Notes under the pieces: generated by a model
What the model saw: only the letters and a program-made list of their open reading frames with translations
The model's database searches: none
Told to the model about the DNA's origin: nothing
Part shown: positions 10,404-29,100 of the stretch, in pieces
How the letters are laid out: each line of letters begins with the position of its first letter
How positions within the stretch are numbered: position 1 is the first letter of the stretch
Translations under genes and position numbers: made by a program
Source: a virus
Taxonomy: Duplodnaviria > Heunggongvirae > Uroviricota > Caudoviricetes
Direction: 5' to 3' (one strand)
Length of the DNA: 44,775 bases
Virus record (IMG/VR): IMGVR_UViG_3300034279_001376
Coordinates: 1-44,775 of that record

Positions 10404-13400
10404 TTACTTAGCAAAAGATTGTGTGCTTTGTATTTTATATTCTGGACTTCCTAAATATAAAATGGCATCATAGTGCATGAGTTTTTTTAGTCTGTGTCCT
10501 AATTTGGAGTCTCCCTCTTCTATAAAATAAGCCTTCATGTCTGCGTCATAATAAGCATCTTCATTGTTAAAGACGTGTGTAAATGAGGCATCTATTAATT
10601 TCTTTCCTTGTTCAAATAATCCAAATCCCATAAAAGGCTCTTTTACGAAATTATAAGTCTCGTTAAAAAGAGGGGGAATCATGGATTCCTGAGTGTTAAG
10701 TAAAGGTATGATAGAAGCAGCATCTGTTTCTTTCTTTGCAGCAAGCATGGTCATAAGAGAAAAATTAGTTGCCCAACTGTTTTCTTTTAACTTGTCATTT
10801 TTTTCTTCATCGTCATCATCATACCCAAATAAGAAAGTGATTAAAAGATAAGTGCTTAACATAGTAATTAACTCGCGTGTCATTTTTCTTCTTGCCACTA
10901 TCTCAAGTGGAGACATTGCTACACCTGAAAATCTACCATTATCAAGATAACTCAAGACTTCTAAGAGAAACCGTTTGAAAGTAGTAACATAAAACCCTTC
11001 TATATCATTCCCCATTACTAGGTTTTTCCGTTTTCCCACGAATCTTTCCCGCAGTTTGGGAATGAAATATTTTTTAAAAAACTCAAAATTTCTCCATATA
11101 GTGAATCTTTGAGCCACAGTGGAGTTGAATTGTTTTCCTTGCACATGCTCTGTGATTACTTTGGTTTTCAAGACCAACTCATTGATGTAGTCTTGATTTA
11201 CTACTTTGTCCCCGTCTTTAGCCTCCTTAATTTTTAACACTCCATTGTCTAAATAAAAAACATCATATAATGGTTTTTCTACTCCATCTATCATTACTTT
11301 TTTGTGGAACAAATGAGCGTAAAGTAAAGTGGTAGTGACTGAAAATTCAGCAGCCTCAGAACTTATGTACTTGAATTTTCCAAATGGATCAAGTTGTCTT
11401 TTTAAGGCAGTCTTACTAAACAAGTCAGTTACATTTTGTGACATAGACAAGTTGAATAGTGTAACAATTTGAAAGTCAAGGCTTTTCTTTTGGTTTCCTA
11501 ATTCACTTATAAACGGAATGAAAGAAGTCTTTGCAGATTTCATGGCTTTCATTATACTCCTAGAGTCTGCCCAATCTGCATCCACAGAAATAATGTTGGT
11601 GAGCATGCCTTGAATGTAGTTCTTTAGGGAGTTGGCCGGGTTAATAATAGATTGAGAAAACAGTGAAGTCCAGTTTCTCATCATTAAGGTAGCCTTGTCC
11701 AAACCTCTTCCTAGTTCGTAATCCTTGACATCTCCATACAATTTGGTTTTCTTGATGTTTTGGATTACTTCTAATCTCCGATTCTTGCCTGTTTTGACCC
11801 TTCTACCACCAGTACCTAAAAGGTCTTTTTCAAAAGGATTAAACTGCTCTAATAGTTGTTCTAAAAGATTAAGTTCTGGAACATTACCTATTAATGCTTT
11901 GGTTCTTTCTAGTCCTTCTGAATAGTTAAGCACCGATGTTAACACATCTCTGGTCACATCCTTCTCTTCTATGTAATTTTTATAAGGAGTGTGAATACTA
12001 GAAATCTTGTTCCCTAAAAGATCAGTCTGGACTTCTCTTTGAGCCTTAGTCTCTAATCCCACAAATGCTCTTAATCTGTCTGCAAACTTACTCCTTAAAG
12101 GCGTGGCATTTTCTTCACCACTTTCTACCGGGTTTATGTTTTCAGTAAATGACTTCCATAAAGAGGCTAGCCCACCACCATCAGTAAATGTCTTGTGCAT
12201 AAACGGGGCTTTATAACCCATACGTGTGTTTTTAGGGGCATCTTTTTGAACCTTACGGTAAAAATCTACCAACTTTTTGTGGTATGCTCTGTCCGAAGCA
12301 TTCATGCTATAATATGCTTCGTTCCTAAACTCGTCAGATTTTGGCAACCATTGCTCGGTTACATCATCCCAAGTATTTTCATTCTTCTCTGTCTTGATCT
12401 GAAAAAATTCTACCCTGTCCTCAAACTCTACTACTACGTTATCTTTTATCTTTCGGTTGGAGTATTTCTGGTTAGGGATCAAAAGAATATCCTCGGTGTT
12501 GTTTGGGGTTATTTTCATCCAAATATAAGTAGGTTTATAATCCACTACGACTTCACCATCCTCCTCGTATTCCTTCATAAAATGGTTCGTGTTAAACCAG
12601 TCTAAGAAATCTTGAGGAGCAGTTTGCAAAAAGGTCTGAAATTTAGAACTTCTTACCAAGGCTAGAAAGTCTTCATTTTCAAATACTCTTCCTAATTCTT
12701 TTGGGTAGATCTTTTCTAATTTAGCAAACATTACTTCATTATAATAGTCAGTGGGCTGCTTGCTTTGAAGATCACTCAACTCTTCAATAACCTTTATAAT
12801 TTTTTTTCTCAAGGCTTTAGCAACATCACTGTCTAAACTTGAACTCTGCTCCTTTATTAGAGCCTTTAGGATATTAATTTCGGTTTCTGCTTGCTTTATT
12901 AACTCTTGATGTTCGAGTGAGGAGTCAGAAGCATCAAATACTCCATTCTCGTCTCGAAGGGAAGATGAAATGTTGAATAGTTCCTCCCAAGAACTTTGCA
13001 AAGCCTTGTTGGATTCTTCTAGTGCTTCTTGTTGATCCTTAGAGAGTAAGGCTCCTAGTTGACTGATTGCTCCTTTTAAGTCGTCTATAATCTTTTTCCT
13101 ATTCTCATAAAATGATTCCGAGTAAGTAAATTTCGTGTTCAATTCTACCCAGTCTATAAAAGTTTGTGGAGCACGGGCTTCTGCTAATGCTTTTAACTCA
13201 TTCAACCATAACGGGTTGTTAGTGTCTAAAAGATCAGACAAGTCCCTTTGAAGGTCTAAGTCTGCCAATTGACTAATCCTTTCATTGAGATCCTTTAAAA
13301 ACCGTTTATTGTCTATTTTATAATCATACAATTGGCGGTCTATAATATGTTTTCTTTTTAAGACATCAGAAATTCTTTTGTCTTTTTCTGGGTCATTATT

Positions 13401-16256
13401 GACTTCTTTATTCCGGTTTGTCTCTACATCAAAAGGATTTCTTAGATTCTTGATCCTGTTTTCTATATTTGTGATCTTAGCCTGTAATATAATTTGTTCT
13501 TCTTTTTCTATGTGGGGTTGTTTCAACTCGGCAACTAAAGATTTCTTTTCATCCCATAATCTTTCTTGTGCTTCTAATGCTCTGTCAAAATCTTCACCTA
13601 CCAGCCCGAATTTCTCGTATATTTCCCAAGTTTCTGTTTGGAACTCACGATTCCAGTTTGCTTTTTCCCAAGCCTTAAATTCCTTAAATGCTTCTTCGTA
13701 AACTCTATGAGCCTCTAGTGTTTCAGGAGTGTCCTCCCCCAAAGCCTTGGCCTCATAGAATTTCTTTCTTAACTGTTCTACCTCAAATTCTTTGGCTCTT
13801 CTTACCCATACGTTTTTATGTGGACTATGAAACATCAAGACATCTCTTTGGTCCATAGTGCCATCCTCTTTAATGTAATTTTCTTTGTCTATGCCTGTGA
13901 TTCTGGCTCCTACTGCTTCATTGTTTTCCTTAGTTCCTAAGTCATTGATTAACTCAACACTGTTGGCTAGGGAAACTTGGTTGGCTCCTATAATAGACCT
14001 TTCTACTACTGTGGAAACAGTCTGAATTAAATCATCCCCGATAAATAAAGAGTTTTCAAAGTAAGCACTCATTGCCACATCACCCTCTAAACCAAAGATA
14101 ATATTGGCTAATTTTTGAGGTGTTATAATTGCCTCATCATATTCTTCTTGAGTAATTTGTCCTGCCCTTAAAGCAGCCATTTTACCCACGTTGTAATCTT
14201 TGCCCACATCTGCCAATTGAGTGGTGAGTAAATCCACGGAAAGTTTGTTAATTCTTTCCTTGGAGATTCTAAGAGCAGTTCCTAAAGCAGCAAACCTTTC
14301 CTTGAGAACCTTGGTTTCTTGAAAGTCAGGATGAGAAAGGATAGGTTGAATGCTTTTTAACCAGTCTTCCCATTGAAGAATCATTCTCATTAAAACAGCA
14401 GCATCTTTGATTCCTTTATTCACGTCTTCTTTACTCCCTTCTAAGAGAGTTCTCAAATATTGAAAGTCGGCCTTGTTTGCATTCTCCCAAAAAAGAGTAG
14501 TAGAGCCTATTGAATTTACAAAGTTTAAAAGCCCTTGTGAAAACTCTACTGAATTTTCCTCAAGTTGGCGTATGATTTGTCTGGCTCTGTCAATAGGAAT
14601 GGTGAGGTTTCCAAATTTGTCTTTAAATAAGTCTGAGAGTCCATCTGCTCCTTCCTCATTTGCATCTTCGTTCTCTATTCGATTTACTATCCGAGAAATT
14701 AACTTTAAAGCAGGTTTAGCCAAGTTCACTATATTGTCAGGGGATAATTTTTTAAACTCTTCTAGGACAACCTCACTGAACTCTTTTGCTTCTGCCTCGA
14801 TTGCTCTTCTTTTCATCATCTCCCCGTAATCAGTGTACTTTACTTTTCCATTGTTATAGTAAACAAAGTCAGTGTCAGTGCCTGAGAAGTCCTTGGTGTT
14901 ATCCACTACTAAAGTATTTCCTTTCTTTTCTTGTTCTACTATGTCAAGTTTGGAAACAGGGTCCATTATGAAAGTACCATCTTCTGACTCTAGCATGTCT
15001 TCTTGACGAGTAGAAACTAACTTGACAGGTCCAAATTCATTTTCTAATCTGTCCCTTAATTCTTGGGTGATTTCACCACTCGTAAAGAATACAAATTTAC
15101 TGGATCCTACTATTTTGATTTTGTCCTTGAGTTCCCTGCCTAGTTTTGTTAAACGGGAATTAGTGTAATATTTTTTGAGGTCTTCACTGTTAGGTATTGA
15201 CCACATTCTACCCTTGATTGCTTTTCCGGGGATAATCTTTTCAGGGTCTCTTCGAGACGGTCTGTCTGGAATAGTATAGTTCTTTAAGTCAAGGAGTGAA
15301 TCATTCACATTGATTAAGACAGTATCGTAATCTCCCAAATCTTTGTTTAAAGTTTGGAATTGTCTGAAATCACTCAAGTCGTGAATTTGATACATAGTAT
15401 CCGATAACATAGCATTCGAGTAGAGTAACTCGGTTGTTTCAAGACTTAAAATTCTCATTGCTGCTTGATTAAAAGGATTCTTTAAACCCTTAACCCGTAG
15501 TATGATGTTTTGAATTATAGACCTCATTTTATTCCACAGATCAGGGGAACCAGAATAATACGCAGCCAAGGCTTTATTGTGGGTGTAAAGCGAGACTAAC
15601 TTGGCCATAGCCTCTCTTTTTAATTTTTCGTAGTTTCCCTTGTACTCAGGATGACTCCCATATTCCTTGAGGACATGTTGGTACATCTTGGTCATGGTAA
15701 TGCTGGATTCCATTTCTTTGTACAATTTGCTCCCTTTGTCTAACATTTCTACAAACACGTGAGCAACCTCTTCTGGAATTGCAGACTCATTGCCTCGTTT
15801 AATCTGAATCAGAAATTCATTCAACTTAGTGACAGCACCTACACTAATACCTTGGTTGTCATTCAATTCATCCAAAGTTTCTAACCTGAAATCTGGGTTC
15901 ACTCGCAGTAAAAAATTTCTTAACGTGTCAAGTATAGGTTCTGGTACAGTACTAAATGGTTCCGGGTTTAACTGGTAGTTCGAGGAATTAACTATTTTCT
16001 GCTCCTCCAAGTTATCAGGGTAATTTATTCCCTTGTGAGCATCTATTAATCTGAATGCACTTTCATTAAAAATAACTTTACCGTTTTCCTCAAACATAAG
16101 TTTAGGAGTGCCAAACCTGCTGGTAGCATTTTCGGAGTATAACCTGTTCACTTTTCTGAACTCATTTAGGTTCAGAATGTTGTTCCATTTATCTATAACA
16201 CCATTTGTAACTAGGTGTGCTTTAGTTTTTGCTCTTGTTGTTGTTACGTTACACAT
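10404..16256 (-). CDS. 1950-aa giant virion cargo/ejection protein with a degenerate zincin-like motif
   Basis: Long, helical and charged. Immediately follows the RNAP gene, as in the giant-gene cluster of crAss-like phages. 'IPEEVAH' at 15759-15773; hydrophobic 'LITMLSTYLLITFLFGY' near the C-terminus. Ends in three consecutive in-frame stops (TAA TAG TAA). Confidence 0.65.
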   Translation of the reverse strand: MCNVTTTRAKTKAHLVTNGVIDKWNNILNLNEFRKVNRLYSENATSRFGTPKLMFEENGKVIFNESAFRLIDAHKGINYPDNLEEQKIVNSSNYQLNPEPFSTVPEPILDTLRNFLLRVNPDFRLETLDELNDNQGISVGAVTKLNEFLIQIKRGNESAIPEEVAHVFVEMLDKGSKLYKEMESSITMTKMYQHVLKEYGSHPEYKGNYEKLKREAMAKLVSLYTHNKALAAYYSGSPDLWNKMRSIIQNIILRVKGLKNPFNQAAMRILSLETTELLYSNAMLSDTMYQIHDLSDFRQFQTLNKDLGDYDTVLINVNDSLLDLKNYTIPDRPSRRDPEKIIPGKAIKGRMWSIPNSEDLKKYYTNSRLTKLGRELKDKIKIVGSSKFVFFTSGEITQELRDRLENEFGPVKLVSTRQEDMLESEDGTFIMDPVSKLDIVEQEKKGNTLVVDNTKDFSGTDTDFVYYNNGKVKYTDYGEMMKRRAIEAEAKEFSEVVLEEFKKLSPDNIVNLAKPALKLISRIVNRIENEDANEEGADGLSDLFKDKFGNLTIPIDRARQIIRQLEENSVEFSQGLLNFVNSIGSTTLFWENANKADFQYLRTLLEGSKEDVNKGIKDAAVLMRMILQWEDWLKSIQPILSHPDFQETKVLKERFAALGTALRISKERINKLSVDLLTTQLADVGKDYNVGKMAALRAGQITQEEYDEAIITPQKLANIIFGLEGDVAMSAYFENSLFIGDDLIQTVSTVVERSIIGANQVSLANSVELINDLGTKENNEAVGARITGIDKENYIKEDGTMDQRDVLMFHSPHKNVWVRRAKEFEVEQLRKKFYEAKALGEDTPETLEAHRVYEEAFKEFKAWEKANWNREFQTETWEIYEKFGLVGEDFDRALEAQERLWDEKKSLVAELKQPHIEKEEQIILQAKITNIENRIKNLRNPFDVETNRNKEVNNDPEKDKRISDVLKRKHIIDRQLYDYKIDNKRFLKDLNERISQLADLDLQRDLSDLLDTNNPLWLNELKALAEARAPQTFIDWVELNTKFTYSESFYENRKKIIDDLKGAISQLGALLSKDQQEALEESNKALQSSWEELFNISSSLRDENGVFDASDSSLEHQELIKQAETEINILKALIKEQSSSLDSDVAKALRKKIIKVIEELSDLQSKQPTDYYNEVMFAKLEKIYPKELGRVFENEDFLALVRSSKFQTFLQTAPQDFLDWFNTNHFMKEYEEDGEVVVDYKPTYIWMKITPNNTEDILLIPNQKYSNRKIKDNVVVEFEDRVEFFQIKTEKNENTWDDVTEQWLPKSDEFRNEAYYSMNASDRAYHKKLVDFYRKVQKDAPKNTRMGYKAPFMHKTFTDGGGLASLWKSFTENINPVESGEENATPLRSKFADRLRAFVGLETKAQREVQTDLLGNKISSIHTPYKNYIEEKDVTRDVLTSVLNYSEGLERTKALIGNVPELNLLEQLLEQFNPFEKDLLGTGGRRVKTGKNRRLEVIQNIKKTKLYGDVKDYELGRGLDKATLMMRNWTSLFSQSIINPANSLKNYIQGMLTNIISVDADWADSRSIMKAMKSAKTSFIPFISELGNQKKSLDFQIVTLFNLSMSQNVTDLFSKTALKRQLDPFGKFKYISSEAAEFSVTTTLLYAHLFHKKVMIDGVEKPLYDVFYLDNGVLKIKEAKDGDKVVNQDYINELVLKTKVITEHVQGKQFNSTVAQRFTIWRNFEFFKKYFIPKLRERFVGKRKNLVMGNDIEGFYVTTFKRFLLEVLSYLDNGRFSGVAMSPLEIVARRKMTRELITMLSTYLLITFLFGYDDDDEEKNDKLKENSWATNFSLMTMLAAKKETDAASIIPLLNTQESMIPPLFNETYNFVKEPFMGFGLFEQGKKLIDASFTHVFNNEDAYYDADMKAYFIEEGDSKLGHRLKKLMHYDAILYLGSPEYKIQSTQSFAK

Positions 16257-16258
16257 AT

Positions 16259-19200
16259 TTAAAATGGTATGTTATTGTTAGGTTTGCCTTTAATTGCGCA
16301 CAAATCTACGACTTTATCATCTAATAAAGGAGAACTAATTTCAGACCTTAAAGCAGTCTCTATTCTTTTCTGTTCTGAAATCCAATATGCACTTGGAGAC
16401 TTATTCTCAGAAATAAAATCTATTACGTCATCTACTGTAAATCCTAACTTATAAGTGTCATTCAAGTCCTCAAGATAGAGATCAAGTGATTGACCTTTGT
16501 TGGATACGTAATTAATTCCTCTTTCTTGTAACCAGTTTTTATCAAAGTTACGTTTAAAAGTTTCTGCTGTTAACCTTACTCCTTTTTTCCCTCCAAAATC
16601 AGAAGCAAGAATATCAGTTTTACTTTGAGGAAACCTTTGTCTTTCTTCTATTTGTTCAAATGAAATTTTAGATATTTCTTTTTCTGTTAAAGGGGAATTT
16701 TCAAAAGAAGGTTTAATCCCCAAGGTTTGCTTTACTGCATTCCAAGAAAACACATTTTGATTTGTCACAGATACTGGTTCAACACTAGGAGTGTTTACAG
16801 AATTATTAAATATTTCTTTGATTGCTTGCTTACCTGCTTCATTAATTTCACGAGTACCAATACCTGCAAATTTTTTAGTCAATACTGGTGTAGGTACTGA
16901 AACAAATTTTTCAGTGCTGTAATCCCACTTGTACCAACCAACACTTGCTTTGTTGTCAGAATTAGTACCTTGGTGAAACACATAAACAGGTTTTCCTAAA
17001 TTAATAGCCATTTGTACTGCATAACCTGTACCACCATCAACTATTTCTTTACTAGATTTGCTGGTGTATCTGGTACCTTTGGATGCTTTACCTTTTTCTC
17101 CAACTCCAATTATATCACTTATTGCAAAAATAGCATCTGCTGCTTTTGCCTGTAAATAATCCCTTCTTACTAAACCACCCACATAATCTTCTCTTTGAGG
17201 ACTAACCCAGTTGTAAGACAGAGTTTTTCTACCCAAATCATCTTTTGCTTTCAAATAAGCAGACTCCACTTCTTCTTGTTGAGGCTTAGTTAATGAGTTT
17301 AAAGTTTCAACTTTATAATTGACTGTTTTACCTACTCCAAATTCTTTACTTTGTGCAGCCCACAGTTTATCAGCACCGATTGCATCACCTGAGTATAAAG
17401 TATGCTCGGTGTAATTAGTTGATTTAGGTGTAATTTCAATGGTAACAGGTATGCTTTGGACTTGCTCGTTAAAATCAAACTGGTATTTCATAAATCTGAA
17501 ATTCCTTTTGTCAAACATTGCTTTAACCGCATTAACACCAGCAGGATTATACTCTTTGACAAAAGAACTACCAAATTCTAATACTCGGTTTTGTAAAAAC
17601 TTCTGCCAGAATTTATTGATGAACTCTTGTTTCTGTTTCTCACCTAGTCTAGTGAACTTTGTGTAAGCCTCGGAAGTGATTGCAGTAATCATACTTGGAG
17701 GAATACCCTTTAACATATACAACTTACTCTGGTTGAAACCACTCTGAAAGAAGGCAACCCTAACCAGATCTTTAGCAAATTGTGCTTGATCTGGTGTTCC
17801 GTTTAGTAAATTTTGGATGTCTTGAGCGAGTGTGTCATAAGTATCCGTGTCATTGTCTAAGCCTACAAAATACATAGGATTTACAAAATCTTCGTACCTG
17901 TCTGCAATTAACTTAGAACCTAATACTGTGTCTTTTAATTCCGGGTACTTTTCTTTTAAATTCGCCCAAGTATCCATTAGTGGGCCAGTCATTAGATTCT
18001 GAACCTCTACCAGATCTTCATTTCCTAAATTCTGAATAATGGCCATTAAGAAGTCATTGTCAATAACCCTTACGAATTTCTCTTTATCACTTTTAACTCC
18101 TAGCCCTTTTTGGGTCACAAAATCTACAAATACTTTATCGTTTTTGATTCCAAAAGCAGCCTCGGATATTAACTTAAACTCTTCGTGGACATTCAAGTGG
18201 GAAATTACAGAATCATTGTGAATTTTATCAGAGGATTCAAGGCTGAAAAGTCCATCAACTTCTACATCAGGATTTTCTTCTTGGATGTTACTCATTTTGT
18301 AAGAAGGGTTAGTACTGGTGTCAAAGTTATTTTTGCTTTGGACTTTACGCAGTGCATCTGCTTGTGCTAAGCCCACAAGATAATACACTAGGACTTCTTT
18401 GTTGAAAGTTGACCTAGAACCAAGAGGTTGTATTTCCCTCAAGTTCAAAGGATTAGAGTAACCTATGCGTTTAATGTCTTCCCATATTTTTTTGTTGGAC
18501 TTGGGAAATGTTCCGTCTTGAGTGACTATTACAGGGTCTATTTCTAACAGTTCAAGCATGGCTTCTTTTTTAGCCTCTCCTCTTGAATAACCCTTTCCTA
18601 CCAATACGTTTATTTTTTGGTGGTACGTGTAAATCTCAGGCTGGTGAAGAAGTTTAAGAACTTTTGGTAAAGGAGTTCCAAGCATAGTCTGAAACATCAC
18701 AAATCCTGTATTGTCTGAGATAAGATTCGTGTAACCTGCAATGTCATTAGAAGCAGCATCCACTGTGATATTGATGAACTGGTTAATGATCTCTAACTTA
18801 TCTAACGTAGTTCTCTCTTTGTCAATGATAAAAGGGTCTGAAATTTTTACCAATTTTTGTTCTTCCTCGGTCAACAAAGGTACATTAAACTCAAAGCCTA
18901 CTTCATTGATAGTCAAAAAACTATTGAGTTTAAAATCTACTGTTTGCATTAACGTGTAGAAAGTGTTTGCAACAGCACCTATCCCTAAGAGGTCTTTAAT
19001 CTTAACTGCTTTCCATTTCTTTAAGTGAGTAGTGTAACTGAACACTCTACTCAATTGAGGCTCTGCATTTACCTTACCTACACCCGGATACAATTTAGCA
19101 GTCACTTCTTCTACTGCACCCTTGATAAGAGCATCAGTATTGGGGGTGATTAACCTGTGGAAATTGACAGGATTCAAAACTATGTCTTTGCTTGCTTCTA

Positions 19201-22200
19201 AGACTTTGTTGTGTTTTACTTGTTTGAACACGCTATCTTTGGCAGCCTGAATAAATGCTTCTTTTGTTATAACCTCACCTTTTTTAACAAGACGAGATTT
19301 TACTATATCAATTATATCTTCATTTACATTAAATCCAGACTTGTCAGAAATAATCCCTAAAATCTGAGAAAGAGGGGAAGACTTAATAATGTCTATTTGA
19401 CTCATTAACTCCTCGTACAATTGCTCATATTTTTCTGACAAATAGTTTTCATTGGGAGCAGTTATGTACCTACCGTTCTTACCAATAGAAGGTAAAATTA
19501 CACTTTCCTTATCATAGTCATAATCCGTACCTGATTTGGTAACAATTTGTGGGGGTGGTACAATAGTATTACCCATCCATTGAGGCAAGAATCTCTTGAC
19601 CATAAATATGTCCATAGAGTTCAGACCTTGTGTTGGAATACGATAAGCAGAAAGAGTTAATTCTTTTTTATATTTTTTGCGGAAAGCCTTGTCTTTTAAT
19701 AACTCGTTGAGTTCTTCGAGAGTGTTATTAGTTACTTCTGGGAGGTTCAAAAGATTCAAAAAATCCCCTGAAAGTGTGACCATACAATCAGCAGGTAACA
19801 CTTCTCCATTTTCATAACGATAAAACTCTAATTCTTCTGCACCAAATAATGCAGGAGCCACTTGAACCAATTGCCCACCCGGAAACTTGGCTTTCACAAT
19901 ACGATTTTTTAAAAGCGAATATATTAAGGTTTCAACACTTTGAGGACTTAAAGATTCTTCGAGGTTTTGACCTGAGTAATTGTCGAATAATTCAGTATAA
20001 GCCAAAGGTAAATCTCTGCTTTCTAACTCTTCCTTGATTAATTCTACAACTTTATAAACATCTACTTGTCCATCCTCTGCTCCTAAGTCTTTCATCAAAG
20101 TTTCCCTAGCATTTTCTGCAAGTTCTCTTTGGCCCTCTATCCAGTTACCTACCGCAGACTTGAGTGAGTTCATAAACTCCCCATTTAAGGAGATGTTAGA
20201 AAGAACCAACTTTCTTTTCTGAGAACCCATCAAATTTTCTGTCTTGATGTAATCAGGAGTTTTTACTTGCTCCTTTAAATAAACAGTGTCTATTTCGTGC
20301 ACAGATTCGTACTCTTTAACCACTTGCCAATCATCAGCATTAAATGTTCCTAACTTGGTTCCTGATTGAAATTTACCGTATGCTATGCCTTGTTTTGACA
20401 TTTGCTCAAAATGCTGTTCTGCTAATGTTCCTTTGATAAAGTCAGGAAACAAAGGAGTAAGAGCAAACTTGTCCAATAACTCTACTGCTACATTAGTTTT
20501 ACTAGCAGGTCTTGCAGAACCTCTGTATTGGAATTTCAACTTAGGAAACTGAAAGTACCAACCTTTTTCTTTGATGTTTAATTCGACTTGCTCAAACAGC
20601 ACTTGTTCTTGTTCTGAGATTATGAATCCTTTTTCTTTCTTAAATTTAGTTGCTAAGTATTGAAAACCTTCTTCTTTTTCAGGTCCCCAAGAATTTACTG
20701 CTTGACACATAATTCTATAAGCATCAGGATGTACCCAACCTTCACCATCTCCTATGTCAGAACTTGGACCATCTTCTTTAGTAGAGTTTCCATAAGGAGC
20801 CACAACTTCGGATGCTCTTTCTTCCAAGTTCTCAGGAGTTCTACCAAAAAACTCATCAGTTAATTTTAATGAGTTTTTAGCACCTTCTGTTAAGTTCTTA
20901 ATCTGTTCTGGAGAAGCCTTCATTTTAGCCTCTTTCAGAACTATGGATTTCATTTTAGTGGTGTCATTGTAATATTCTGGTCTAACCCCAAAAGCCTCTG
21001 AGAAAGTGCCTCCTTGGAGCCTTTCTTTAAATACGGTCTGTGCAGCCTGTGACATTACAAAAGGAGTACCGTTTGAAATGTTAGACTTTAACCTTTTGTA
21101 TATTTTGTCAAATTGCCCCAGTTCTCCATGAAACAAAATAATTTCTTCGATGGACATTACCAAGGAATTGAGAAGAAACTTATCTAATAATCCCTCTAAG
21201 TCCTCAGATGCTTCTTTCTGTAATTGAGAAAGGAATATAGGATGGCTTTCATCTACTGGTTGACCAGTCTCTTGAAGAATCCAATTTTTAAAGTCTTGTT
21301 TTTGAGCCTCAAAGTATGCCTCGAATTGCTCGTAAAATTCCTCTTTTCTGTCCTCTACAAATTGAGACACCTGCTCCAAAGACACGAGATCAAGATCAGT
21401 CAAAAAAGTGTCATCTAAAAAACTAAAAAATGTTAAACCTTGTTTTTTGTTTTCGTAGAATTTAGAGCCATATTTAGTAGGTTCATTTCTCTCTAGCCAA
21501 ACTCTTTCTAGTTCTCCTTTTAAGTATTGTTTGAATTGAACCTTGGCATTTTCTATTACATTTTTAGTGCCCAATGGAAGGTAAGTTCCTGCAACAGTGC
21601 TTGATTTACCATAAGCCACTCTAAACCCAAATGAAGAAGATGCTGTTTCTGCTCGAAGGTTCTCTTTGAAGCCACCCTCCAACACAGTGACCAATTCTTG
21701 TCTTACATACTCAATCGTAGGCAAGGAGATAGTATTGGTTCCATTCTCTAAGAATTGTGTTCCTGATACATTAAGAGGGGTTATTTTAGCACCACCTTTA
21801 ACCGCATTTAATGCCAATGAGTACTTGGCGATAGGATTTCTTAACCTTTCTACCCGTTCAAAATTACCTTCGTTTATAAACTTAATATTAAGCAGATAAG
21901 AAGAAAAATTATGCAGATTGCTCTGATTCTTCCCCTCTGGGTTTTTAGTCATATTACTCGTAGAATATGGCAAATACTTTGACATGGTGTTTTGGAAGTC
22001 AAGAACAACTCCTTTGTATCCTATAAACTTCTTACCGTCTATTTCTTGAGCATTTTCTAAAAAGTCAAATATATCAAAAGTAATTTCTAGTTCTGTGTTC
22101 TTTACGTATTCTAACTTATTTACCAATTTTGTCAAGAAATTTCCACTAACGGAGTAAACCTCGTTACGTACAGTAGGATATGATTCCATCTGAGAAGTGA

Positions 22201-25200
22201 TATTTACCCCGAAGTTTTTCATTACTTTTTTTATGCTGTCCTCAGTGTATCCACCTCTGATTGTTTTTAACTCCTTGTTTAAGTAATCTAAGAGAGAGTT
22301 AGGTGTCAACTCATCAAACTCCTTGTCTGCAAAAGCCTTAAAACTGTCCAACATTGCAGACTTAATATTTTGTGCATCTAGTCTTCCTGATTCAAAAATA
22401 TCATAAGAAAATTTCCGGTCAGGTCTTTCTTTAGAGTATTGGGTATTAAGACCTGCAAATTCTTGCTCAAACATTTCCTCTTCATACACTGGCTCTCCAT
22501 ACTCCTCTTGCTCATACCAATTATCTTTAGAGTTTATTTCTTTCTGCTTGACTATAATAGTAGGCACTAAAACCTTTGAAAAAGATTGCTCTATTCCTTT
22601 CAAAATAAACATTTCTTCATAAGCACTATCTCCTGTGCCAGTTAATTGCTCTAGGCGTTCTAGCACTATGTTCATTTCAGGCAATTTTTTGTAGCCTTTT
22701 AATTTTTCCTTAATTTCCTCGATGTCAAGTGAGCCATGCACTGCATCAGCAATACTGTTCCATAAGGTAGTATAATCACTAGGAATTAAATTACCGTTTT
22801 TATCCTTGGCATAAACATACTGTCCATTATCCATTACTGGTTCCCCATCTTCTAGGAGGATCTTAGGAATCATTTTAATAAACACTCTCGCATATTTAGT
22901 ACCAGCATCTACTGAACTGATAGAACTTTCTGTTCTGTCTTGAAATTTAGTCTCGGTATCAGACTGAGTTTTGTCTTTTACTTCAAGTTCCGCTAGTTTT
23001 GAGGATTTTAACCAAGTCTCAAAAGTAGCATCAAAGTCTTTCAAGAAAGGTTTAAGATACTCAGCCCTTAAAGGGTCTTTAGATTCTAATTCTAACTCTT
23101 CTAATAGCACTTCTTTAACCAATTCAGCATCCAAATCTCCATTTAAAAGATCAGCAAACTGCCCTATATCCCATGCCAGATTCGAGAGTAACATGTCTAA
23201 ATGAGCAACAGGTATTTCTGGTACACGGTCAAATGAACCTAGTATTTTTTTCTTGCTTACTAAAGTTCTTTTCTTAGGTCCTATCTCCGAGGGTACATTT
23301 TCTACAAATTGTTGAACTTTTGAAGTCCTGTTAAATATCAATTTGAGAAGATCAAAAGTAACTTGCTCTTGTATGCTTGGATTCTCGTAGAATAAACTGG
23401 CTATTTTAGACATTAACTCATTTAAAAGACCAAGAATGTATTCGTAAATTCCTTGGTTGCTTGTTGTCTCATAAGTAAAACCTGATTCTTTAATCAAGTC
23501 CTGCATAAAAGGCATAGTCAAGGAAGTTACAAACTCTTCCATGCTTTCTGTATAATACTGCATTCTGTCAATACTATACATACTTCTAAGATGGTTTCTT
23601 AGTCTGTCTAATTCTTGGTATTCTACTGTGTCTTTTTGGGAGCCTAAATTATCTGCTGTGTAAGCATGGATCAATTCTTCAAGTACGTATCCTTTTACAT
23701 TTCCCTTGGTAATTTGGGAAGCCCTTAAATAAATTTGACCATTAGTATAGGCTGCTATTAAGTCAGTGCCTAATTTGTCCATTTCAGCATCAGACAGGAA
23801 ATTGACTGACTTACCCTCTTTCAAAAGAGAATAAACCAATTCACCTTGCTCGCTTAGTGGTTCCCCTTTGATTGAATTGATAGGAACTGTTCCTACTGGG
23901 AAATCTTGAACCTCTTGAATATCAGAAACTTCAAGTCTGTCCCTATCGTAAGTAAATACATAGTTTTCTGCATAACCCAACCTACCGTTTACTTGGGTTA
24001 ATCTAGTGCTTAGTTTTCCTAGTAAATATTCTTCCTGTTCAGGTTTGGGCCATAAGGTGTCTTTAATACCATTGTCATAAGTTAACCTTTTGGTGTAACT
24101 ACCTACACTGTTTCCCTCGAATGTTTTGGGTACACGTATTCTCTGACCTAATAGAGCCAATCTAACCTTGGGTGTTATTTCACGCACTGGTTTTTGATTG
24201 GTTTCAGTCACATAACTTCCCTCACTTTTATACCTTTCGACTGAATATTCTATCTTGAAATTGTCACCTTCCTTGTAAGGGTAAAAAGCAATTCCTCTGC
24301 TTGTAACTTTAATTCCTTTGGTTAAAGCCTCTTCGTATGTTTGAACATCTTTGGGAGTGGTGAATTCACCTAGCATTAATATTTCGTTCAGGTAATTAAT
24401 AACTTTAGAAACTTCTGCAAAAGATTTGTAATCGCCTGCCATTAACCCTAAAACCTCTTTGTGCAATTCCTCTCCATCAGTAAGGGTTCCAATGGAAATT
24501 AATTCAACACCTTTAGGCCCTCTTAATCTAGGTACACCTCTGTCCCCAAATGGTGCTTCTTTATCAGGAATGAATATTTGGTCAAGAGTTACTCCTCTCT
24601 CTTTAAAACTTTTATACTCGCTGTCCACAGAGGTTGCTTCTACCCTGTAAGTTATTTCTTTTCCTTCACTCAACAACTGCTCAAATTCTGCACGTTTCTG
24701 AGAAGGCACGGATAGGTAAAGTTGAGAACCTCTTTTTCTTTCTTCTTCTATCTTGTAATCAAATATATACGCCTTTGACTTATCAGTAGTCAATTCACCA
24801 GCCTCAAATTGTTTAGGTTTAGAGGTTAAATATAATGGCTTCCATACACCGTTTTCTTTCCTTTCTAAAATAGCAACTACTCCTTTCCCAGAATTAACTT
24901 GAGCCCTTGTTAAAGGAACTCCATTGGCTAAAGGTTGCACAAAATCTTCACTGGCTCTCACCACTTTAACTCTAGTTTCTCCTTCTAGCCCTAAGATCAG
25001 GGCTTGTCTGGCCAAATCCAATTCATCAGTACTTGTGCTGAAAGTCTTGAAAATCAACCCTTTAGAGGCAGTTGTTTTGGTGATAGGTTCTGGAGCCACC
25101 ACCTCTTTCTCCTCGTAGTCCTTAAAGTTATCAAGTGTAACAGGCTCAAATCCCATCACTAGATTGGCACGTTTTTCTGCTATTGACTTAGATATTGAGT

Positions 25201-25756
25201 CATCTATTTCTACGCCAAAATCCTTGGCTATCTCTAAATAATAGTCAATAATCCCGTTGTCTCCTATTACTGAGTTTAAGAATTTGCTGCTTTGTTTGTC
25301 AGTTTTTTCAAGTATTTTAGGGACTTGGTTTTCTAGGACATTCTTTACATTAGAAGCATCAGGTAAAAAGTAGTTTCCTAAGAAAAGTGTGGCTAGAGTG
25401 TCTAAGTCAGAAGCCTTTCCTAATTCCGTATTAATGTCAGGGATAGTGATGCTGTACTTATTCACGGTAGCCCCCTTAACTAAACCTTTTAAGTTCTTAC
25501 CCAGTTCGAGGTTGGGCAAAGAAACTTGCACCTCAAGACCATTTGCTGTGTCTATAACTTGTAAAAACTTGAGTTTTTTAGCAACCCCTTTTTGTCCTTG
25601 GAAATCCAAAGAAACTGGAATTGCTTTTTTGTCCACCAATAAAGCCTTTTTGAGTGCTTTCTTGAAGTCCTCTATGTTGTCGAATTTATTCCCAAGTTGT
25701 TTTGAGAGTAAAGGGTCTTTTATAATTAATTTACAATTCAATAAACTTAGGTTCAT
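16259..25756 (-). CDS. Single-chain crAss-type virion RNA polymerase (~3165 aa) with N-terminal zincin-like and C-terminal SLOG-like accessory domains
   Basis: 'SAYRIPTQG' (RIPTQ at 19628-19642) is followed ~40 aa later by 'KSGTDYDYDK' (DYDYD at 19511-19525). This matches the RIP...DxDxD arrangement of double-psi-barrel RNAPs such as phi14:2 gp66 (DFDID). 'DGEGW' lies at ~20740. The start was moved from 25789 to the ATG at 25756, which forms an ATGA overlap with the upstream stop. Confidence 0.88.
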   Translation of the reverse strand: MNLSLLNCKLIIKDPLLSKQLGNKFDNIEDFKKALKKALLVDKKAIPVSLDFQGQKGVAKKLKFLQVIDTANGLEVQVSLPNLELGKNLKGLVKGATVNKYSITIPDINTELGKASDLDTLATLFLGNYFLPDASNVKNVLENQVPKILEKTDKQSSKFLNSVIGDNGIIDYYLEIAKDFGVEIDDSISKSIAEKRANLVMGFEPVTLDNFKDYEEKEVVAPEPITKTTASKGLIFKTFSTSTDELDLARQALILGLEGETRVKVVRASEDFVQPLANGVPLTRAQVNSGKGVVAILERKENGVWKPLYLTSKPKQFEAGELTTDKSKAYIFDYKIEEERKRGSQLYLSVPSQKRAEFEQLLSEGKEITYRVEATSVDSEYKSFKERGVTLDQIFIPDKEAPFGDRGVPRLRGPKGVELISIGTLTDGEELHKEVLGLMAGDYKSFAEVSKVINYLNEILMLGEFTTPKDVQTYEEALTKGIKVTSRGIAFYPYKEGDNFKIEYSVERYKSEGSYVTETNQKPVREITPKVRLALLGQRIRVPKTFEGNSVGSYTKRLTYDNGIKDTLWPKPEQEEYLLGKLSTRLTQVNGRLGYAENYVFTYDRDRLEVSDIQEVQDFPVGTVPINSIKGEPLSEQGELVYSLLKEGKSVNFLSDAEMDKLGTDLIAAYTNGQIYLRASQITKGNVKGYVLEELIHAYTADNLGSQKDTVEYQELDRLRNHLRSMYSIDRMQYYTESMEEFVTSLTMPFMQDLIKESGFTYETTSNQGIYEYILGLLNELMSKIASLFYENPSIQEQVTFDLLKLIFNRTSKVQQFVENVPSEIGPKKRTLVSKKKILGSFDRVPEIPVAHLDMLLSNLAWDIGQFADLLNGDLDAELVKEVLLEELELESKDPLRAEYLKPFLKDFDATFETWLKSSKLAELEVKDKTQSDTETKFQDRTESSISSVDAGTKYARVFIKMIPKILLEDGEPVMDNGQYVYAKDKNGNLIPSDYTTLWNSIADAVHGSLDIEEIKEKLKGYKKLPEMNIVLERLEQLTGTGDSAYEEMFILKGIEQSFSKVLVPTIIVKQKEINSKDNWYEQEEYGEPVYEEEMFEQEFAGLNTQYSKERPDRKFSYDIFESGRLDAQNIKSAMLDSFKAFADKEFDELTPNSLLDYLNKELKTIRGGYTEDSIKKVMKNFGVNITSQMESYPTVRNEVYSVSGNFLTKLVNKLEYVKNTELEITFDIFDFLENAQEIDGKKFIGYKGVVLDFQNTMSKYLPYSTSNMTKNPEGKNQSNLHNFSSYLLNIKFINEGNFERVERLRNPIAKYSLALNAVKGGAKITPLNVSGTQFLENGTNTISLPTIEYVRQELVTVLEGGFKENLRAETASSSFGFRVAYGKSSTVAGTYLPLGTKNVIENAKVQFKQYLKGELERVWLERNEPTKYGSKFYENKKQGLTFFSFLDDTFLTDLDLVSLEQVSQFVEDRKEEFYEQFEAYFEAQKQDFKNWILQETGQPVDESHPIFLSQLQKEASEDLEGLLDKFLLNSLVMSIEEIILFHGELGQFDKIYKRLKSNISNGTPFVMSQAAQTVFKERLQGGTFSEAFGVRPEYYNDTTKMKSIVLKEAKMKASPEQIKNLTEGAKNSLKLTDEFFGRTPENLEERASEVVAPYGNSTKEDGPSSDIGDGEGWVHPDAYRIMCQAVNSWGPEKEEGFQYLATKFKKEKGFIISEQEQVLFEQVELNIKEKGWYFQFPKLKFQYRGSARPASKTNVAVELLDKFALTPLFPDFIKGTLAEQHFEQMSKQGIAYGKFQSGTKLGTFNADDWQVVKEYESVHEIDTVYLKEQVKTPDYIKTENLMGSQKRKLVLSNISLNGEFMNSLKSAVGNWIEGQRELAENARETLMKDLGAEDGQVDVYKVVELIKEELESRDLPLAYTELFDNYSGQNLEESLSPQSVETLIYSLLKNRIVKAKFPGGQLVQVAPALFGAEELEFYRYENGEVLPADCMVTLSGDFLNLLNLPEVTNNTLEELNELLKDKAFRKKYKKELTLSAYRIPTQGLNSMDIFMVKRFLPQWMGNTIVPPPQIVTKSGTDYDYDKESVILPSIGKNGRYITAPNENYLSEKYEQLYEELMSQIDIIKSSPLSQILGIISDKSGFNVNEDIIDIVKSRLVKKGEVITKEAFIQAAKDSVFKQVKHNKVLEASKDIVLNPVNFHRLITPNTDALIKGAVEEVTAKLYPGVGKVNAEPQLSRVFSYTTHLKKWKAVKIKDLLGIGAVANTFYTLMQTVDFKLNSFLTINEVGFEFNVPLLTEEEQKLVKISDPFIIDKERTTLDKLEIINQFINITVDAASNDIAGYTNLISDNTGFVMFQTMLGTPLPKVLKLLHQPEIYTYHQKINVLVGKGYSRGEAKKEAMLELLEIDPVIVTQDGTFPKSNKKIWEDIKRIGYSNPLNLREIQPLGSRSTFNKEVLVYYLVGLAQADALRKVQSKNNFDTSTNPSYKMSNIQEENPDVEVDGLFSLESSDKIHNDSVISHLNVHEEFKLISEAAFGIKNDKVFVDFVTQKGLGVKSDKEKFVRVIDNDFLMAIIQNLGNEDLVEVQNLMTGPLMDTWANLKEKYPELKDTVLGSKLIADRYEDFVNPMYFVGLDNDTDTYDTLAQDIQNLLNGTPDQAQFAKDLVRVAFFQSGFNQSKLYMLKGIPPSMITAITSEAYTKFTRLGEKQKQEFINKFWQKFLQNRVLEFGSSFVKEYNPAGVNAVKAMFDKRNFRFMKYQFDFNEQVQSIPVTIEITPKSTNYTEHTLYSGDAIGADKLWAAQSKEFGVGKTVNYKVETLNSLTKPQQEEVESAYLKAKDDLGRKTLSYNWVSPQREDYVGGLVRRDYLQAKAADAIFAISDIIGVGEKGKASKGTRYTSKSSKEIVDGGTGYAVQMAINLGKPVYVFHQGTNSDNKASVGWYKWDYSTEKFVSVPTPVLTKKFAGIGTREINEAGKQAIKEIFNNSVNTPSVEPVSVTNQNVFSWNAVKQTLGIKPSFENSPLTEKEISKISFEQIEERQRFPQSKTDILASDFGGKKGVRLTAETFKRNFDKNWLQERGINYVSNKGQSLDLYLEDLNDTYKLGFTVDDVIDFISENKSPSAYWISEQKRIETALRSEISSPLLDDKVVDLCAIKGKPNNNIPF

Positions 25757-26190
25757 AAAATAAAATATTCTGTTTTGTTTGAAATACAAGGACTCGCTAA
25801 AGTAGGAAAGTTAAAACTGTACAAAGTTCCTTCCCAATTTATTTTTTCTTGTGAAACTATTTTGTGGTCTGTGAGGTGAGTTTTAAAGTGCTTACAACCT
25901 TTTGTAAAAAATGTAGATGTAGGTTCTAACCGGATTACTTCGTCAAATTCTACATAATTTTCCCACTGCTCTAGTAAGGATAACTCAGTGGCAAGTTCTG
26001 TTTTTTTAATCTTGGTTTTGTCCAACACTCCTGAATAATGAAATTTTGTAAAAACAGTTTGCTTTTGCCATACTATCTTATTTTCAGAAAGCGTTAGAAA
26101 TACAGTGTCTAAAGTTATACTAGACAGTAACTCCCATCCGTTGTCAGTAAATACAAAATGAAAATCTGGTATAGCCAGTAATTTATTCAT
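25753..26190 (-). CDS. 145-aa stand-alone Hint/intein-fold-like protein lacking splicing residues
   Basis: Coupled on both sides (TAATG at 26190, ATGA at 25753). 'FVFTDNGWELLSSITLDTVFLTLSENKIVWQK...YSG' and 'EKINWEGTLYSFNFP' resemble the N- and C-terminal blocks of Hint domains by eye. Confidence 0.5.
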   Translation of the reverse strand: MNKLLAIPDFHFVFTDNGWELLSSITLDTVFLTLSENKIVWQKQTVFTKFHYSGVLDKTKIKKTELATELSLLEQWENYVEFDEVIRLEPTSTFFTKGCKHFKTHLTDHKIVSQEKINWEGTLYSFNFPTLASPCISNKTEYFIL

Positions 26191-29100
26191 TAACAATCTA
26201 AATTTATTAGGTTATTTTGCACTGACTGCAAAAGTACTTGTTTTAATTCATTACTAGCATCTTTTGAAAAGAAATCTATTTTTTCTTCCAAAGTGGCCTC
26301 TTGCTTTCCATAAAGTTCTGCTATTTTAGAGTCAATTTCAGCATTGATTTTATCTATAAGTTCTTGTTTAGTTTTTGCACTACGTGCTCCTATTGTCATA
26401 AAACTATTATATTCGGAATCAAACTCTATATTTCTCAAGTATCTTGCTTTGTCATCTTCGAGTTCCTTTACTTTCCTTTGTATTTCTTTTTCTTGCTTTT
26501 CTTTTTTCCTAGCCTCTACTCCATCTTTTCCGTATCTAATTGTGTCTGCAAACTCTGCTATGTTAGAAACATCCTGATACCCTAATAAAAACTTGTGTGC
26601 CATTTCAAAAGTGTCAAAAGTGTATACGCTTGTATTAGTAAAAGTACCAATGTTTGCATAGTATGCTGGACCATTGTTTTGTATAAACCCATCATTAAAA
26701 CTTGTTCTTCCTGTTTCAAATAATTCCTGCCTTCTTGTATTAACAATACCTGCTTTTTCTTCCAAAGTAGATTCTTGTTCAGATTGTGTATTAAAAATAG
26801 TACTAATATCTATTCCAGTAAAATCTTTGGTGCTTAGAATTATATACTTTTCTAAATAGTCTTTTGTTTTGTAATTACTGTTACCAATTAGTTTTCTTTT
26901 AACACTGAGTACTTGTTCAACCTTTTCACTGGGTATAAATTTACTGTTTACTATTTCTAATATTCTTGAAATCCCTGCATCCACACTGTCTTTGTTTCCA
27001 AAGTCAATAGAATCCAAAACAGCAAAAGCATCTTTACTTATGGTAAGACCGTTAAAATCGGGCAAGTCTCTCAAATTAATTTCTTTATTTTTTTCATCTT
27101 TCTTTTCAAGTTCACTTCCCCAAGTAAGTACTATTTTCTTATCCAAGTAAATTTTACCATCTTTTACTTTTACAGTACCTTTAGTAATTTGTACTTGTCC
27201 TTTCTTGGGCCTTCCTGTTCCCCTTAATTCCGCTACATTTTGATGGCTGTCTATGAAACTAAATACTTCTGTTTCGGAATTGGGGTCAAAATAAAATTCA
27301 CCAGTAACTCCGTTGTGTTTTACTATAATATTACCGTTTGATAAACCATCAAATTGCCCGTTGAACAATTTTGCAGAGTCTGTTACAAAAGTCATAGGAA
27401 AATTTGTAACAGATTCCGCTCTGGTTGAATCCGGTAAACTTTCTGGTATTAACAAGTCTGTAACTGGTTCCTTCTCTATAACTGGTTCTCCATCCAATGA
27501 ATAATACTCGTGTCTTTCTGGTCTGTTTAACTTGATCTTATCTTGTAACAAATTCCCGTTTGTTAAAGTCCATATTGAAATACCATCAGCAGTAGCCAGA
27601 GTTCCTTTGATTATGTATCTTCCTCCGTCTTTTTTAGGCTCTTTGACCAGTTCTTTACCTTTGATTAATTCGTCAAGTTCCGCTTGGTTTTCTTTCCTCA
27701 TCTTCTCTTTTTGTGCTTTGTCTCTAACCATAGCATCATACGCATCCACCTCTATCTCTTCATCTGTCATTACTCTTACTCCCTCATTTACAGGTTCTTG
27801 TACAATTGGAGGTGTGGGTGCAGCAGGTGTTGGTGCATCAACTTTTGTAATTTCCCACTGATAAATTGAAGTTATTCCATTGTTAGTGTAATTATCTGGA
27901 CCAAACACAATAGTATTGGTCTCATTTCCAACTTCTCTGCCTCCTATAAAAGTCCCCCTAGTGTCTCCCAGAATGTATAGTTTACCCCCAAAATTTACTA
28001 TGTCCCCAGAATTAAGAGTTCTGAGAAAATAATACTGGTGAGGTCCAAAATCAATAGGTTCTGTGTCGGGGTTATTGGCTTGTTCTGCTTCATCCAAACC
28101 TGCGAGTGTTTCCACCATGTCAGTAGCAGATTGCTCTGGATTGTCAGCATTTTTTATCAACTCCTCTTGGGTTGCCTTAATCATTTCTTCTTGTAACCTA
28201 GCCTCTTCAAGTTGTCTCATTTTTTCTTCAAGTGACCTACCACTGGCAGTTCCTGCATACTCGTGTTCTAGGATTAACTGTTGAAGAGTTTCAGGGTTGT
28301 CTAGGTTTTGACTGATTCTTTCGTAAAGAACCTCTAAATCTAGTAACTGCCTACTTGTTGCTTTTTCTCTTAACGTATCTCCCAAGTCCGAGTAATAGTC
28401 TTTTTGGTTCTTTAATGCCTCAATTTGGCGATTCTTAAATCCTAAATAACTGCCTATGGTGTCCCTGTCACCCAAGGCCACAAGAGTAGCATAAGTAATG
28501 TCAGAATCTTGAGGATTGTTGTTTCCTAGTTTAATCTCTTCTTGGAGGGAAAATACATCACTTTGAGTATTTCTAAGTCTCCCTAGAAGATAACTCTGAT
28601 TTTCTTTCCAATCCTCAAACAATTTCTGTTGAACTGTTGAAACTTTGCTTTGGTCAACTTTGAATTTCTTAACTAAAAGATCCTTCACCTTACTGTTAGA
28701 GAAAGGGTTACTTTTAAAAGACTTTTCTACGGCTATTTTCTCGTCTTGAATTTGTTCTACTTCGGTAATTAATTTATTTATTACCTTAGATTTATCTAGG
28801 TCAGATTTTAAACCTTGAGTTGGGTCTTGATAAAATGCTTTGTTGTATTCTTCAAGAGAAAGGTCATTTAAGTCCTCAAGAGAACTCTTTAAGTCTTCTA
28901 CCTTACCAAATTTTGCAGCATTACTCACCGTTCTGTAAAGAGACTTGTAAGCATTTTGAAACTGGTCTGTTCTGCTTTGATTCGTAAGAGAGTCTTCAAG
29001 GCTTGACAATTCACCAACACTAGCCCTAAAAAGATCTAGGTCTTTGTTCATAGTGTCAGTGATTCCTTGCTGTCTGTCTGACCCAAATATGTTATTTTTA

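Follow-up and report, generated by a model that had tools for sequence, protein, structure and literature searches.

Paired cysteines at the facing termini of giant ejected proteins in crAss-like phages

The IMG/VR virus record IMGVR_UViG_3300034279_001376 (Caudoviricetes) is a complete 131,429-bp genome with direct terminal repeats, and the window analysed here is its first 44.8 kb. It holds three giant genes, referred to as A, B and D, which encode a putative virion RNA polymerase (RNAP) and its two neighbours; the proteins are almost free of cysteine (Cys) and carry cysteines at the termini which face one another in gene order. Crassviruses are the most abundant phages of the human gut, and the question addressed is how several megadaltons of crassvirus protein, with a 250–350 kDa RNA polymerase among the cargo, pass through a narrow tail. 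The published ejection model says only that the cargo must partly unfold. The terminal Cys pattern described here is conserved and apparently undescribed, and we propose that it staples the giants head to tail.

The giant genes and their cysteines

All large genes of the window lie on the minus strand and encode, in 5′ to 3′ order along it, ring protein 1, the muzzle protein, a 424-amino acid (aa) protein, an open reading frame (ORF) with a DUF5856 match, proteins of 1062 and 862 aa, giant A, a small ORF (orfX), giant B, giant D and fibre-like proteins. The features on which the argument rests are these, with positions counted along the window.

26190–30593, minus strand: giant A, 1467 aa, first member of the proposed chain; its single Cys is the last residue (TGT at 26193–26195, then TAA)
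26193–26327, minus strand: C-terminal module of A, ~45 aa, consensus NIxxFLG...L...I...hxhxC, ending in the invariant Cys
25753–26190, minus strand: orfX, 145 aa, predicted free-standing Hint (intein-like) fold exactly between A and B; its ATG overlaps the A stop (TAATG) and its TGA overlaps the B start (ATGA)
16259–25756, minus strand (ATG at 25756): giant B, 3165 aa, virion RNAP homologue and middle member; four Cys
19511–19525, minus strand: DYDYD, B residues 2078–2082, aligned with the catalytic DFDID and DFDVD of crAss-like virion RNAPs
16772–17431, minus strand: most conserved segment of B, residues 2776–2995, 50–57% identical between otherwise very distant giants
10404–16256, minus strand: giant D, 1950 aa, last member; its ATG lies 2 nt past the B stop codon and its single Cys is residue 2 (codon 16251–16253)
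30574–38052, minus strand: three cargo-type proteins of 862, 1062 and 424 aa, all Cys-free

The four Cys of B are residues 8 (25733–25735), 1684, 1991 and 3153 (16298–16300, with 12 residues after it). An in-frame TTG at 25739–25741, five codons past the ATG, would give a protein starting MNCKLIIKD, like the MNC, MAC and MSC starts of its relatives, hence the true start may be this TTG, making the first Cys residue 3 instead of 8. The initial annotation had placed the terminal cysteines of the three giants at these positions and had found none in the 862, 1062 and 424 aa proteins; the former was right in every case, in the translations and in the DNA, and the latter was confirmed in the translations.

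Cysteine is strongly depleted from the whole cargo-type set. The six proteins together contain six Cys in 8,930 aa (0.067%), compared with 273 in 22,148 aa (1.23%) for the other 64 ORFs of at least 150 aa in the same genome; approximately 110 would be expected in the six-protein module (Poisson P(≤6) ~4e-39). Four of these six Cys are at the facing termini of A, B and D. With the number of Cys per protein held fixed, random placement would put all four junction Cys within the terminal stretches with a probability of ~6e-10. The homologue families of A, B and D have a similarly low Cys frequency (0.06–0.10%), and Cys content is normal in the muzzle protein and ring protein 1.

Alignment shows giant B to be a true homologue of crAss-like virion RNA polymerases of the phi14:2 gp66 type. 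In BLASTP comparisons B residues 1519–2113 matched residues 855–1404 of phi14:2 gp66 (E 1e-13) and residues 1784–2097 matched crAss001 gp50 (E 1e-16), with TDYDYDK of B aligned to SDFDIDK and SDFDVDK of these proteins. Within the structural block, the B gene comes after the ring, muzzle and cargo genes and has another giant gene on either side. Virion packaging of the phi14:2 and crAss001 proteins is known from mass spectrometry (bioRxiv 10.1101/2020.03.07.982082; PMC10172136), and homology suggests that B is likewise packaged in the virion of the present phage.

Giant A has tblastn homologues in cr128_1, IAS virus and phi17:2, and is related to the crAss ‘RNAP subunit’ proteins of the crAss001 gp47 type. 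Giant D gave no detectable tblastn match to annotated phage homologues, and possesses no HExxH zincin motif, which was present in one distant D homologue only. Searches of PHROGs and Pfam returned nothing for A, B or D, as did phmmer against PDB sequences; megablast of the window region against INPHARED phages found no match and no close relative there, and a related-locus search with the C-terminus of B as probe returned no relatives.

The conserved B segment 2776–2995 resembles SLOG/DprA proteins in language-model features (score 0.93, 201 shared), which we treat as a lead only. The segment is also present in small proteins of unrelated large viral contigs, and phi17:2 has a free-standing SLOG gene, gp037 (PF10686, 2.4e-15), within its module.

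Conservation of the facing cysteines and their loss on gene fusion

The A, B and D families were drawn from a 5.8-billion-protein collection. Of 48 A homologues (30–89% identity), 46 terminate with Cys or Cys-X and 43 of these contain no other Cys; the two homologues without the terminal Cys both come from contigs of ~3.5 kb. All 18 D homologues (21–100% identity) have a Cys at residue 2–4, which is the sole Cys in 15. The B family (57 homologues of 2,273–5,254 aa, forming 30 clusters at 40% identity) has an N-terminal Cys in 46 and a C-terminal Cys in 53 members. A typical B homologue contains exactly two Cys, at residue 3–6 and 0–15 residues from the end, and in 38 of the 57 there is no internal Cys across 2,900–5,250 aa. 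The outer termini lack Cys altogether, at the N-terminus of A (0/48) as at the C-terminus of D (0/18).

Conservation of the terminal Cys in homologous trios had been named in the initial annotation as the comparison on which its proposal could fall, and the proposal survived it decisively. Enrichment over expectation, also put forward there, was equally clear: 46 observed versus 0.6 expected at the A C-terminus, 46 versus 0.4 at the B N-terminus, 53 versus 0.9 at the B C-terminus and 18 versus 0.07 at the D N-terminus. The Cys stand out in alignments of the terminal 160 residues, where mean column identity is 17–19%. Only Phe134 and Cys160 are invariant in the A C-terminal alignment (33 sequences, 17% mean column identity), and in the B N-terminal alignment the Cys is the sole invariant column.

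On inspection of the individual sequences, all apparent exceptions in the B family resolved into incomplete gene calls, one scaffold gap, gene fusions, or the ends of two-protein chains. P0110 is 38 residues shorter than its relatives at the N-terminus, truncation affects the C-terminus of P0104 and P0071 and the N-terminus of P0113, and P0073 is interrupted by a 200-N scaffold gap. P0115 closes a two-protein chain and P0093 opens one. Two others, P0085 and P0105, with ~900–1000 extra N-terminal residues, are probably divergent A+B fusions.

Further motifs were observed at the ends of these proteins. One B subfamily has a tail beyond the C-terminal Cys that closes with a conserved (D)IPF-COOH, as in CAIKGKPNNNIPF, CDSDIPF and CPVPF; IPFFKQ is the ending of the crAss001 and cr128_1 D proteins. 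The outer ends, free of Cys, are marked by other conserved motifs (M-x(1-4)-DP[FL] in A at the N-terminus, PEYKIQ...Q..NR in D at the C-terminus), which could be leader and trailer signals.

The same arrangement was found in all named phages that were inspected, listed here in the order first, middle and last member.

phi14:2: gp67, 1797 aa, one Cys (last residue); gp66 virion RNAP, 2180 aa, Cys3 and Cys2179 only; gp65, 1421 aa, Cys3 only
crAss001: gp47, one Cys, third from the end; gp50, Cys5 and Cys2404 of 2412; gp49, Cys5 only
phi17:2: gp039, 1957 aa, Cys last; gp038, 517 aa, Cys4 and Cys516; gp036, 1914 aa, Cys3
Lbo-JY46: 1552 aa, Cys last; no middle member; 2748 aa, Cys4

The three-member Cys pattern is also present in cr128_1, DAC17 and IAS virus. 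Cellulophaga phage phi17:2 and the Leptolyngbya cyanophage Lbo-JY46 are not classified in Crassvirales in their records, and the pattern is not confined to that order. The B gene of IAS virus (gp055/gp056, locus L007 31212–40194) is annotated as two overlapping ORFs and its sequence includes ambiguous bases; it is probably one gene split by sequence errors.

There is next to no chance, in our view, that the pattern is a by-product of nucleotide constraints at gene junctions or a gene-calling artefact. Genes in the window are indeed tightly coupled, by the 2-nt spacer at B/D and the TAATG and ATGA overlaps at A/orfX/B. However, the Cys position varies, from residue 2 to 7 at N-termini and from 0 to 15 residues from the end at C-termini, and the pattern is present in raw ORFs. 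Furthermore, in crAss001, cr128_1, DAC17 and IAS virus the A gene lies on the strand opposite B and its C-terminal Cys is kept. As non-adjacent A and B genes keep their Cys, constraint at the nucleotide level is effectively refuted.

The virion RNAP module of crAss-like phages consists of three proteins which are sometimes fused into one polyprotein (bioRxiv 10.1101/2020.03.07.982082; PMC10172136), and the fusions follow the same pattern. Two A+B fusions recognised with an A-family hidden Markov model, P0123 and P0117, have no Cys at the N-terminus or near the internal junction and retain the C-terminal Cys; the gene downstream of P0123 starts MAC. In p-crAssphage gp44, a B+D fusion, Cys3 is kept and there is no C-terminal Cys, and the preceding gp45 ends in Cys-Met. 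Single-gene giants were found without terminal Cys (L005, 4928 aa, with D-like regions at its C-terminal end; L040, 5796 aa) or without any Cys at all (L038, more than 5722 aa; L046, 3064 aa), and the two-protein modules L010 and L011 have one Cys pair each.

Short ‘linker’ proteins between two giants occur at three loci.

L019 11620–12543: linker of 307 aa
L041 9894–11315: linker of 473 aa
L004 25564–27117: linker of 517 aa

All three have Cys near both ends (e.g. MSC...KAIC-stop) and otherwise share little. At L041 a GIY-YIG homing-endonuclease-like ORF (11362–12087) lies in the junction of the linker protein and the last giant, hence the intergenic junctions of the module attract mobile elements.

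To obtain a less biased sample from IMG/VR, the conserved B segment 2776–2995 was used as probe, which returned 31 loci. These included 14 non-redundant multi-giant loci with 21 junctions, and Cys was present on both facing termini in all of them; none of the 14 last proteins had a C-terminal Cys. Approximately 45 junctions were inspected overall, with no exceptions. By the rule that emerges from these sequences, n giants carry n-1 Cys pairs, only at facing termini. The observation of the initial annotation that the C-terminal Cys of each giant is matched by an N-terminal Cys in the next is thus strengthened, in that the pairs vanish together when the genes are fused.

The terminal Cys could instead bind elsewhere, by forming homotypic dimers (A-A, D-D), by anchoring the giants to portal, capsid or muzzle, or by attaching to a target in the host once delivered. 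Disulfides form among the structural proteins of crassviruses, which are rich in Cys, and lone terminal Cys do exist, in p-crAssphage gp47 and in Lbo-JY46 ‘85’. We nevertheless regard such partners as quite unlikely, as they leave unexplained the Cys-free outer termini (0/48 at the A N-terminus, 0/18 at the D C-terminus and 0/14 in the last proteins) and the equal numbers of C- and N-terminal Cys at every junction. A single fused giant, moreover, needs no Cys yet must still be packaged and ejected.

The Hint-fold ORF and neighbouring genes

The initial annotation had left the ~400 nt between A and B as a gap, which is not so, for the interval encodes the 145-aa orfX. Its AlphaFold2 (AF2) model has a pLDDT (predicted local distance difference test score) of 81.7, and the top Foldseek hits were all BIL domains or inteins. 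VIA-align superposed the model on a split intein with Z 12.2 and a root mean square deviation of 2.0 Å over 111 residues, and 78 chains reached Z ≥8. Structure prediction therefore points to a Hint fold over the full length of orfX. Seven relatives were detectable among 1.8 billion representatives, and a homologue occurs in L012, L014, L015 and L016, in each case between an A ending in Cys and a B starting M-x-Cys.

Position 1 of inteins falls on residue 6 of orfX, which is Ala here, Ala, Gly or Tyr in relatives and Cys in one lineage. The family has no conserved TxxH block (no His at T+3), and a C-terminal Asn is found in some members only. The ORF has its own start and stop and is neither inserted in frame in, nor fused to, a host polypeptide. 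Relative to A, its frame is not the same in L014, L015, L016 and the window, hence orfX is translated separately and cannot act in cis. Taken together with the model, this makes orfX a separately translated, catalytically degenerate Hint domain. A frameshift or readthrough joining A, orfX and B was also considered and was rejected, as the relative frames differ between related phages.

The position of orfX raises the question of whether the Cys pairs are tied to Hint or intein chemistry, either as fission scars of decayed inteins or as substrates of Hint-type thio(ester) ligation. In the window clade orfX sits exactly between an A which ends in Cys and a B which starts M-x-Cys, and intein splice junctions use Cys on both sides. 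We consider this explanation very unlikely, however. The orfX family is small and clade-restricted, and most other Cys-pair junctions, including B/D of the window, have no intervening ORF, hence orfX cannot explain the general Cys pattern. Intein position 1 corresponds to an Ala within orfX and not to the terminal Cys of A, the TxxH block and terminal Asn are not conserved, and the variable frame precludes action in cis. Functionless scars would also not be expected to stay invariant at 20–30% identity. orfX itself may be what remains of an intein, an inserted mobile element like the GIY-YIG homing endonuclease gene in the L041 junction, or a junction chaperone.

The genes upstream of A are as follows.

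38052–42931, minus strand: ring protein 1 (266 aa, 7 Cys) and muzzle protein (1360 aa, 22 Cys)
36778–38052, minus strand: 424-aa cargo-type protein, no Cys; weak transglycosylase-like match
36350–36769, minus strand: DUF5856 ORF, 139 aa, between the 424-aa and 1062-aa genes; DUF5856 at 4e-9
33162–36350, minus strand: 1062-aa cargo-type protein, no Cys; weak crAss cargo-1 domain (crAss_CARG1, just under the cut-off)
30574–33162, minus strand: 862-aa cargo-type protein, no Cys

The muzzle protein matches PF25731 at 2.3e-21, and CrAss_Ring_1 (PF24228) fell just under the cut-off. The ring protein 1 and muzzle genes place the module in a crAss-type tail. The DUF5856 ORF also matches a PHROG annotated as a starvation-inducible regulator (3e-13), and an ORF of this kind occupies the same place in L014.

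A proposed head-to-tail staple and its relation to known systems

We favour, with moderate confidence, a reading in which A, B and D are joined head to tail by their facing terminal Cys, most likely through a disulfide, for thread-like delivery. Of the linked, ordered chain suggested by the initial annotation, the pairing of facing termini is supported by conservation, by the location of Cys at facing ends only and by paired loss on fusion; the disulfide chemistry, the timing of oxidation, the threading order and the reductive release are what we infer beyond this. The sequence comparisons make the C-terminal Cys of one protein and the N-terminal Cys of its successor a working pair, for which a peptide bond can substitute.

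The bond would connect the single C-terminal Cys of one giant to the single N-terminal Cys of the next, and would form inside the assembled or released virion. The link would restore the continuity that related phages gain from one fused polyprotein, so that the cargo would become one nearly linear thread of ~6,600 residues. Each joint would leave only short side stubs able to pass a narrow portal or tail channel, because the Cys are within 1–7 residues of the N-termini and 0–15 of the C-termini. Such a link would ensure 1:1:1 co-packaging and a delivery both ordered and processive, until reduction in the host cytoplasm broke it. The remaining Cys would have been purged, as in other ejected phage proteins, which would also prevent mispairing. 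The virion of crAss001 contains inter-subunit disulfides in the tail and portal vertex (PMC10172136), hence a disulfide in a crassvirus particle is feasible. An alternative pairing, with B closed N-to-C and A bonded to D, was also considered; it is excluded by the fusions, which remove exactly the facing pair, since A+B fusions keep the B/D pair and B+D fusions keep the A/B pair.

Contact between the termini was examined by complex prediction for the A/B pair, using the C-terminal 71 aa of A with the N-terminal 160 aa of B and alignments of the window sequence plus six rows. The score was 0.59 (runs of 0.58, 0.59 and 0.67), compared with 0.00 for the best of three controls; the runs agreed in at least 85% of contacts, with partner pLDDT of at least 61. 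Of 80 solved complexes, 58 reach the mark set for such scores, as do 2 of 110 mismatched pairs; these counts hold approximately here, since our own alignments were used. Scores at 0.60 or under include seven of the 80 solved complexes and both passing mismatches. The modelling of terminal peptides called for in the initial annotation thus reached the mark for the A/B pair; it weakly supports contact of the termini and says nothing on chemistry.

The facing termini could also be joined via a shared metal ion (e.g. Zn or Cu) or through a non-covalent handshake with Cys as a contact residue. The pairing logic is equally compatible with this, no oxidation would be needed in a reducing cytoplasm, and the complex prediction (0.59, weak) concerns contact rather than chemistry. 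We consider it unlikely, however, as there is one Cys per terminus and no second ligand (Cys, His or Asp) conserved nearby, a two-thiolate site would be unusual for Zn, and there is no CxxC as in zinc hooks. A disulfide is favoured over a metal site because each terminus has one invariant thiol and no other conserved ligand.

Several observations weigh against a disulfide-linked chain, among them the modest level of the A/B complex score. Virions assemble in the reducing cytoplasm, and many crassviruses live in anoxic guts. No thioredoxin or glutaredoxin was recognisable in the complete 131-kb genome, and a search of the genome for an Erv1 thiol oxidase gave no match, with a control which likewise gave none. 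Many internal Cys are tolerated in IAS virus, in p-crAssphage and in three B homologues (26–35 Cys), hence the avoidance of mispairing is not absolute. The Hint-fold ORF at the A/B junction hints at other thiol chemistry in the window clade. If all that each Cys needs is a free terminus, joint loss on fusion would be expected as well, and the absence of Cys at the outer termini is a stronger argument for pairing than this loss. Finally, two terminal Cys have no facing partner.

L002 4694–7267: p-crAssphage gp47, 857 aa, Cys penultimate
L008 13658–15682: Lbo-JY46 ‘85’, 674 aa, Cys5

These two proteins may be homodimers or have another partner.

A broader version of the head-to-tail staple can be put forward more tentatively, and we are inclined to doubt it somewhat more than to accept it. 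In Crassvirales and related podophages the ejected giants would always form one thread, with gene splits re-joined by Cys-Cys staples, including those of the 300–500 aa linkers, and reduction in the cytoplasm would free the RNAP and its partners. In the window clade, a domesticated Hint domain, catalytically dead and encoded at the junction, would template or chaperone the A-B joint.

A conserved staple would provide a concrete mechanism, open to cheap tests, by which packaging is stoichiometric and ejection ordered and processive. If true, it would explain the interchangeability of fused and split modules in evolution, offer a simple signature by which ejected-protein modules and their member order could be read from metagenome sequences, and suggest a redox switch which keeps the virion RNAP inactive up to its arrival in the cytoplasm.

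Earlier descriptions exist of Cys depletion and of modules in fused or split form (PMC11445570; bioRxiv 10.1101/2020.03.07.982082). Neither PMC10172136 nor bioRxiv 10.1101/2020.03.07.982082 mentions the Cys of the giant RNAP-module proteins, and no description of terminal Cys pairs or of a linked cargo chain was found in the literature searched, outside which most subscription papers fall; the initial annotation had likewise known of none.

Among the closest known systems is the crAss-like virion RNAP module itself. As there, the genes lie downstream of ring, muzzle and cargo genes and occur in fused and split forms, with B homologous to gp66 and gp50, including the catalytic, metal-binding DxDxD motif, and A to gp47-type proteins. 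What is added to the published module is that a Cys pair flanks each split and is absent at each fusion. In comparison with annotated crAss-like homologues, D of the window is without detectable match and without the HExxH zincin motif.

The ejection proteins of Schitoviridae (N4 gp50; DEV gp71, gp72 and gp73) are Cys-suppressed, for which passage outside the cytoplasm has been given as the rationale, and the N4-like virion RNAP is a single polypeptide with no Cys, the few found having been dismissed as errors (PMC11445570). The window giants are similarly almost Cys-free (0.067% versus 1.23%). Unlike the Schitoviridae proteins, however, they keep strictly conserved terminal Cys which track gene boundaries. 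The disulfides of crAss001 sit in tail hub, ring and portal-vertex proteins; the cargo giants are unresolved in that structure and no cargo disulfide is reported (PMC10172136). These structural disulfides are between ordered subunits seen in density, unlike the proposed cargo links.

Like inteins, BIL domains and Hedgehog Hint domains, orfX has a predicted Hint fold, and it lies between two Cys-bearing termini. Unlike inteins and BIL domains, it stands alone as an ORF, out of frame with any host protein, and shows no conservation of the catalytic residues. The giants also differ from zinc hooks in having a single Cys per terminus and no CxxC or multi-ligand motif.

In AB-type translocated proteins, an interchain disulfide holds two chains together through a membrane channel and is cut by cytosolic reductants. 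The logic proposed for the window giants would be the same, with two chains held by a single disulfide until the cytosol is reached, and there is no sequence relationship between the two systems. AB-type chains are cut from one precursor and their bond is not end-to-end, whereas the phage giants are separately translated and would be concatenated terminus to terminus.

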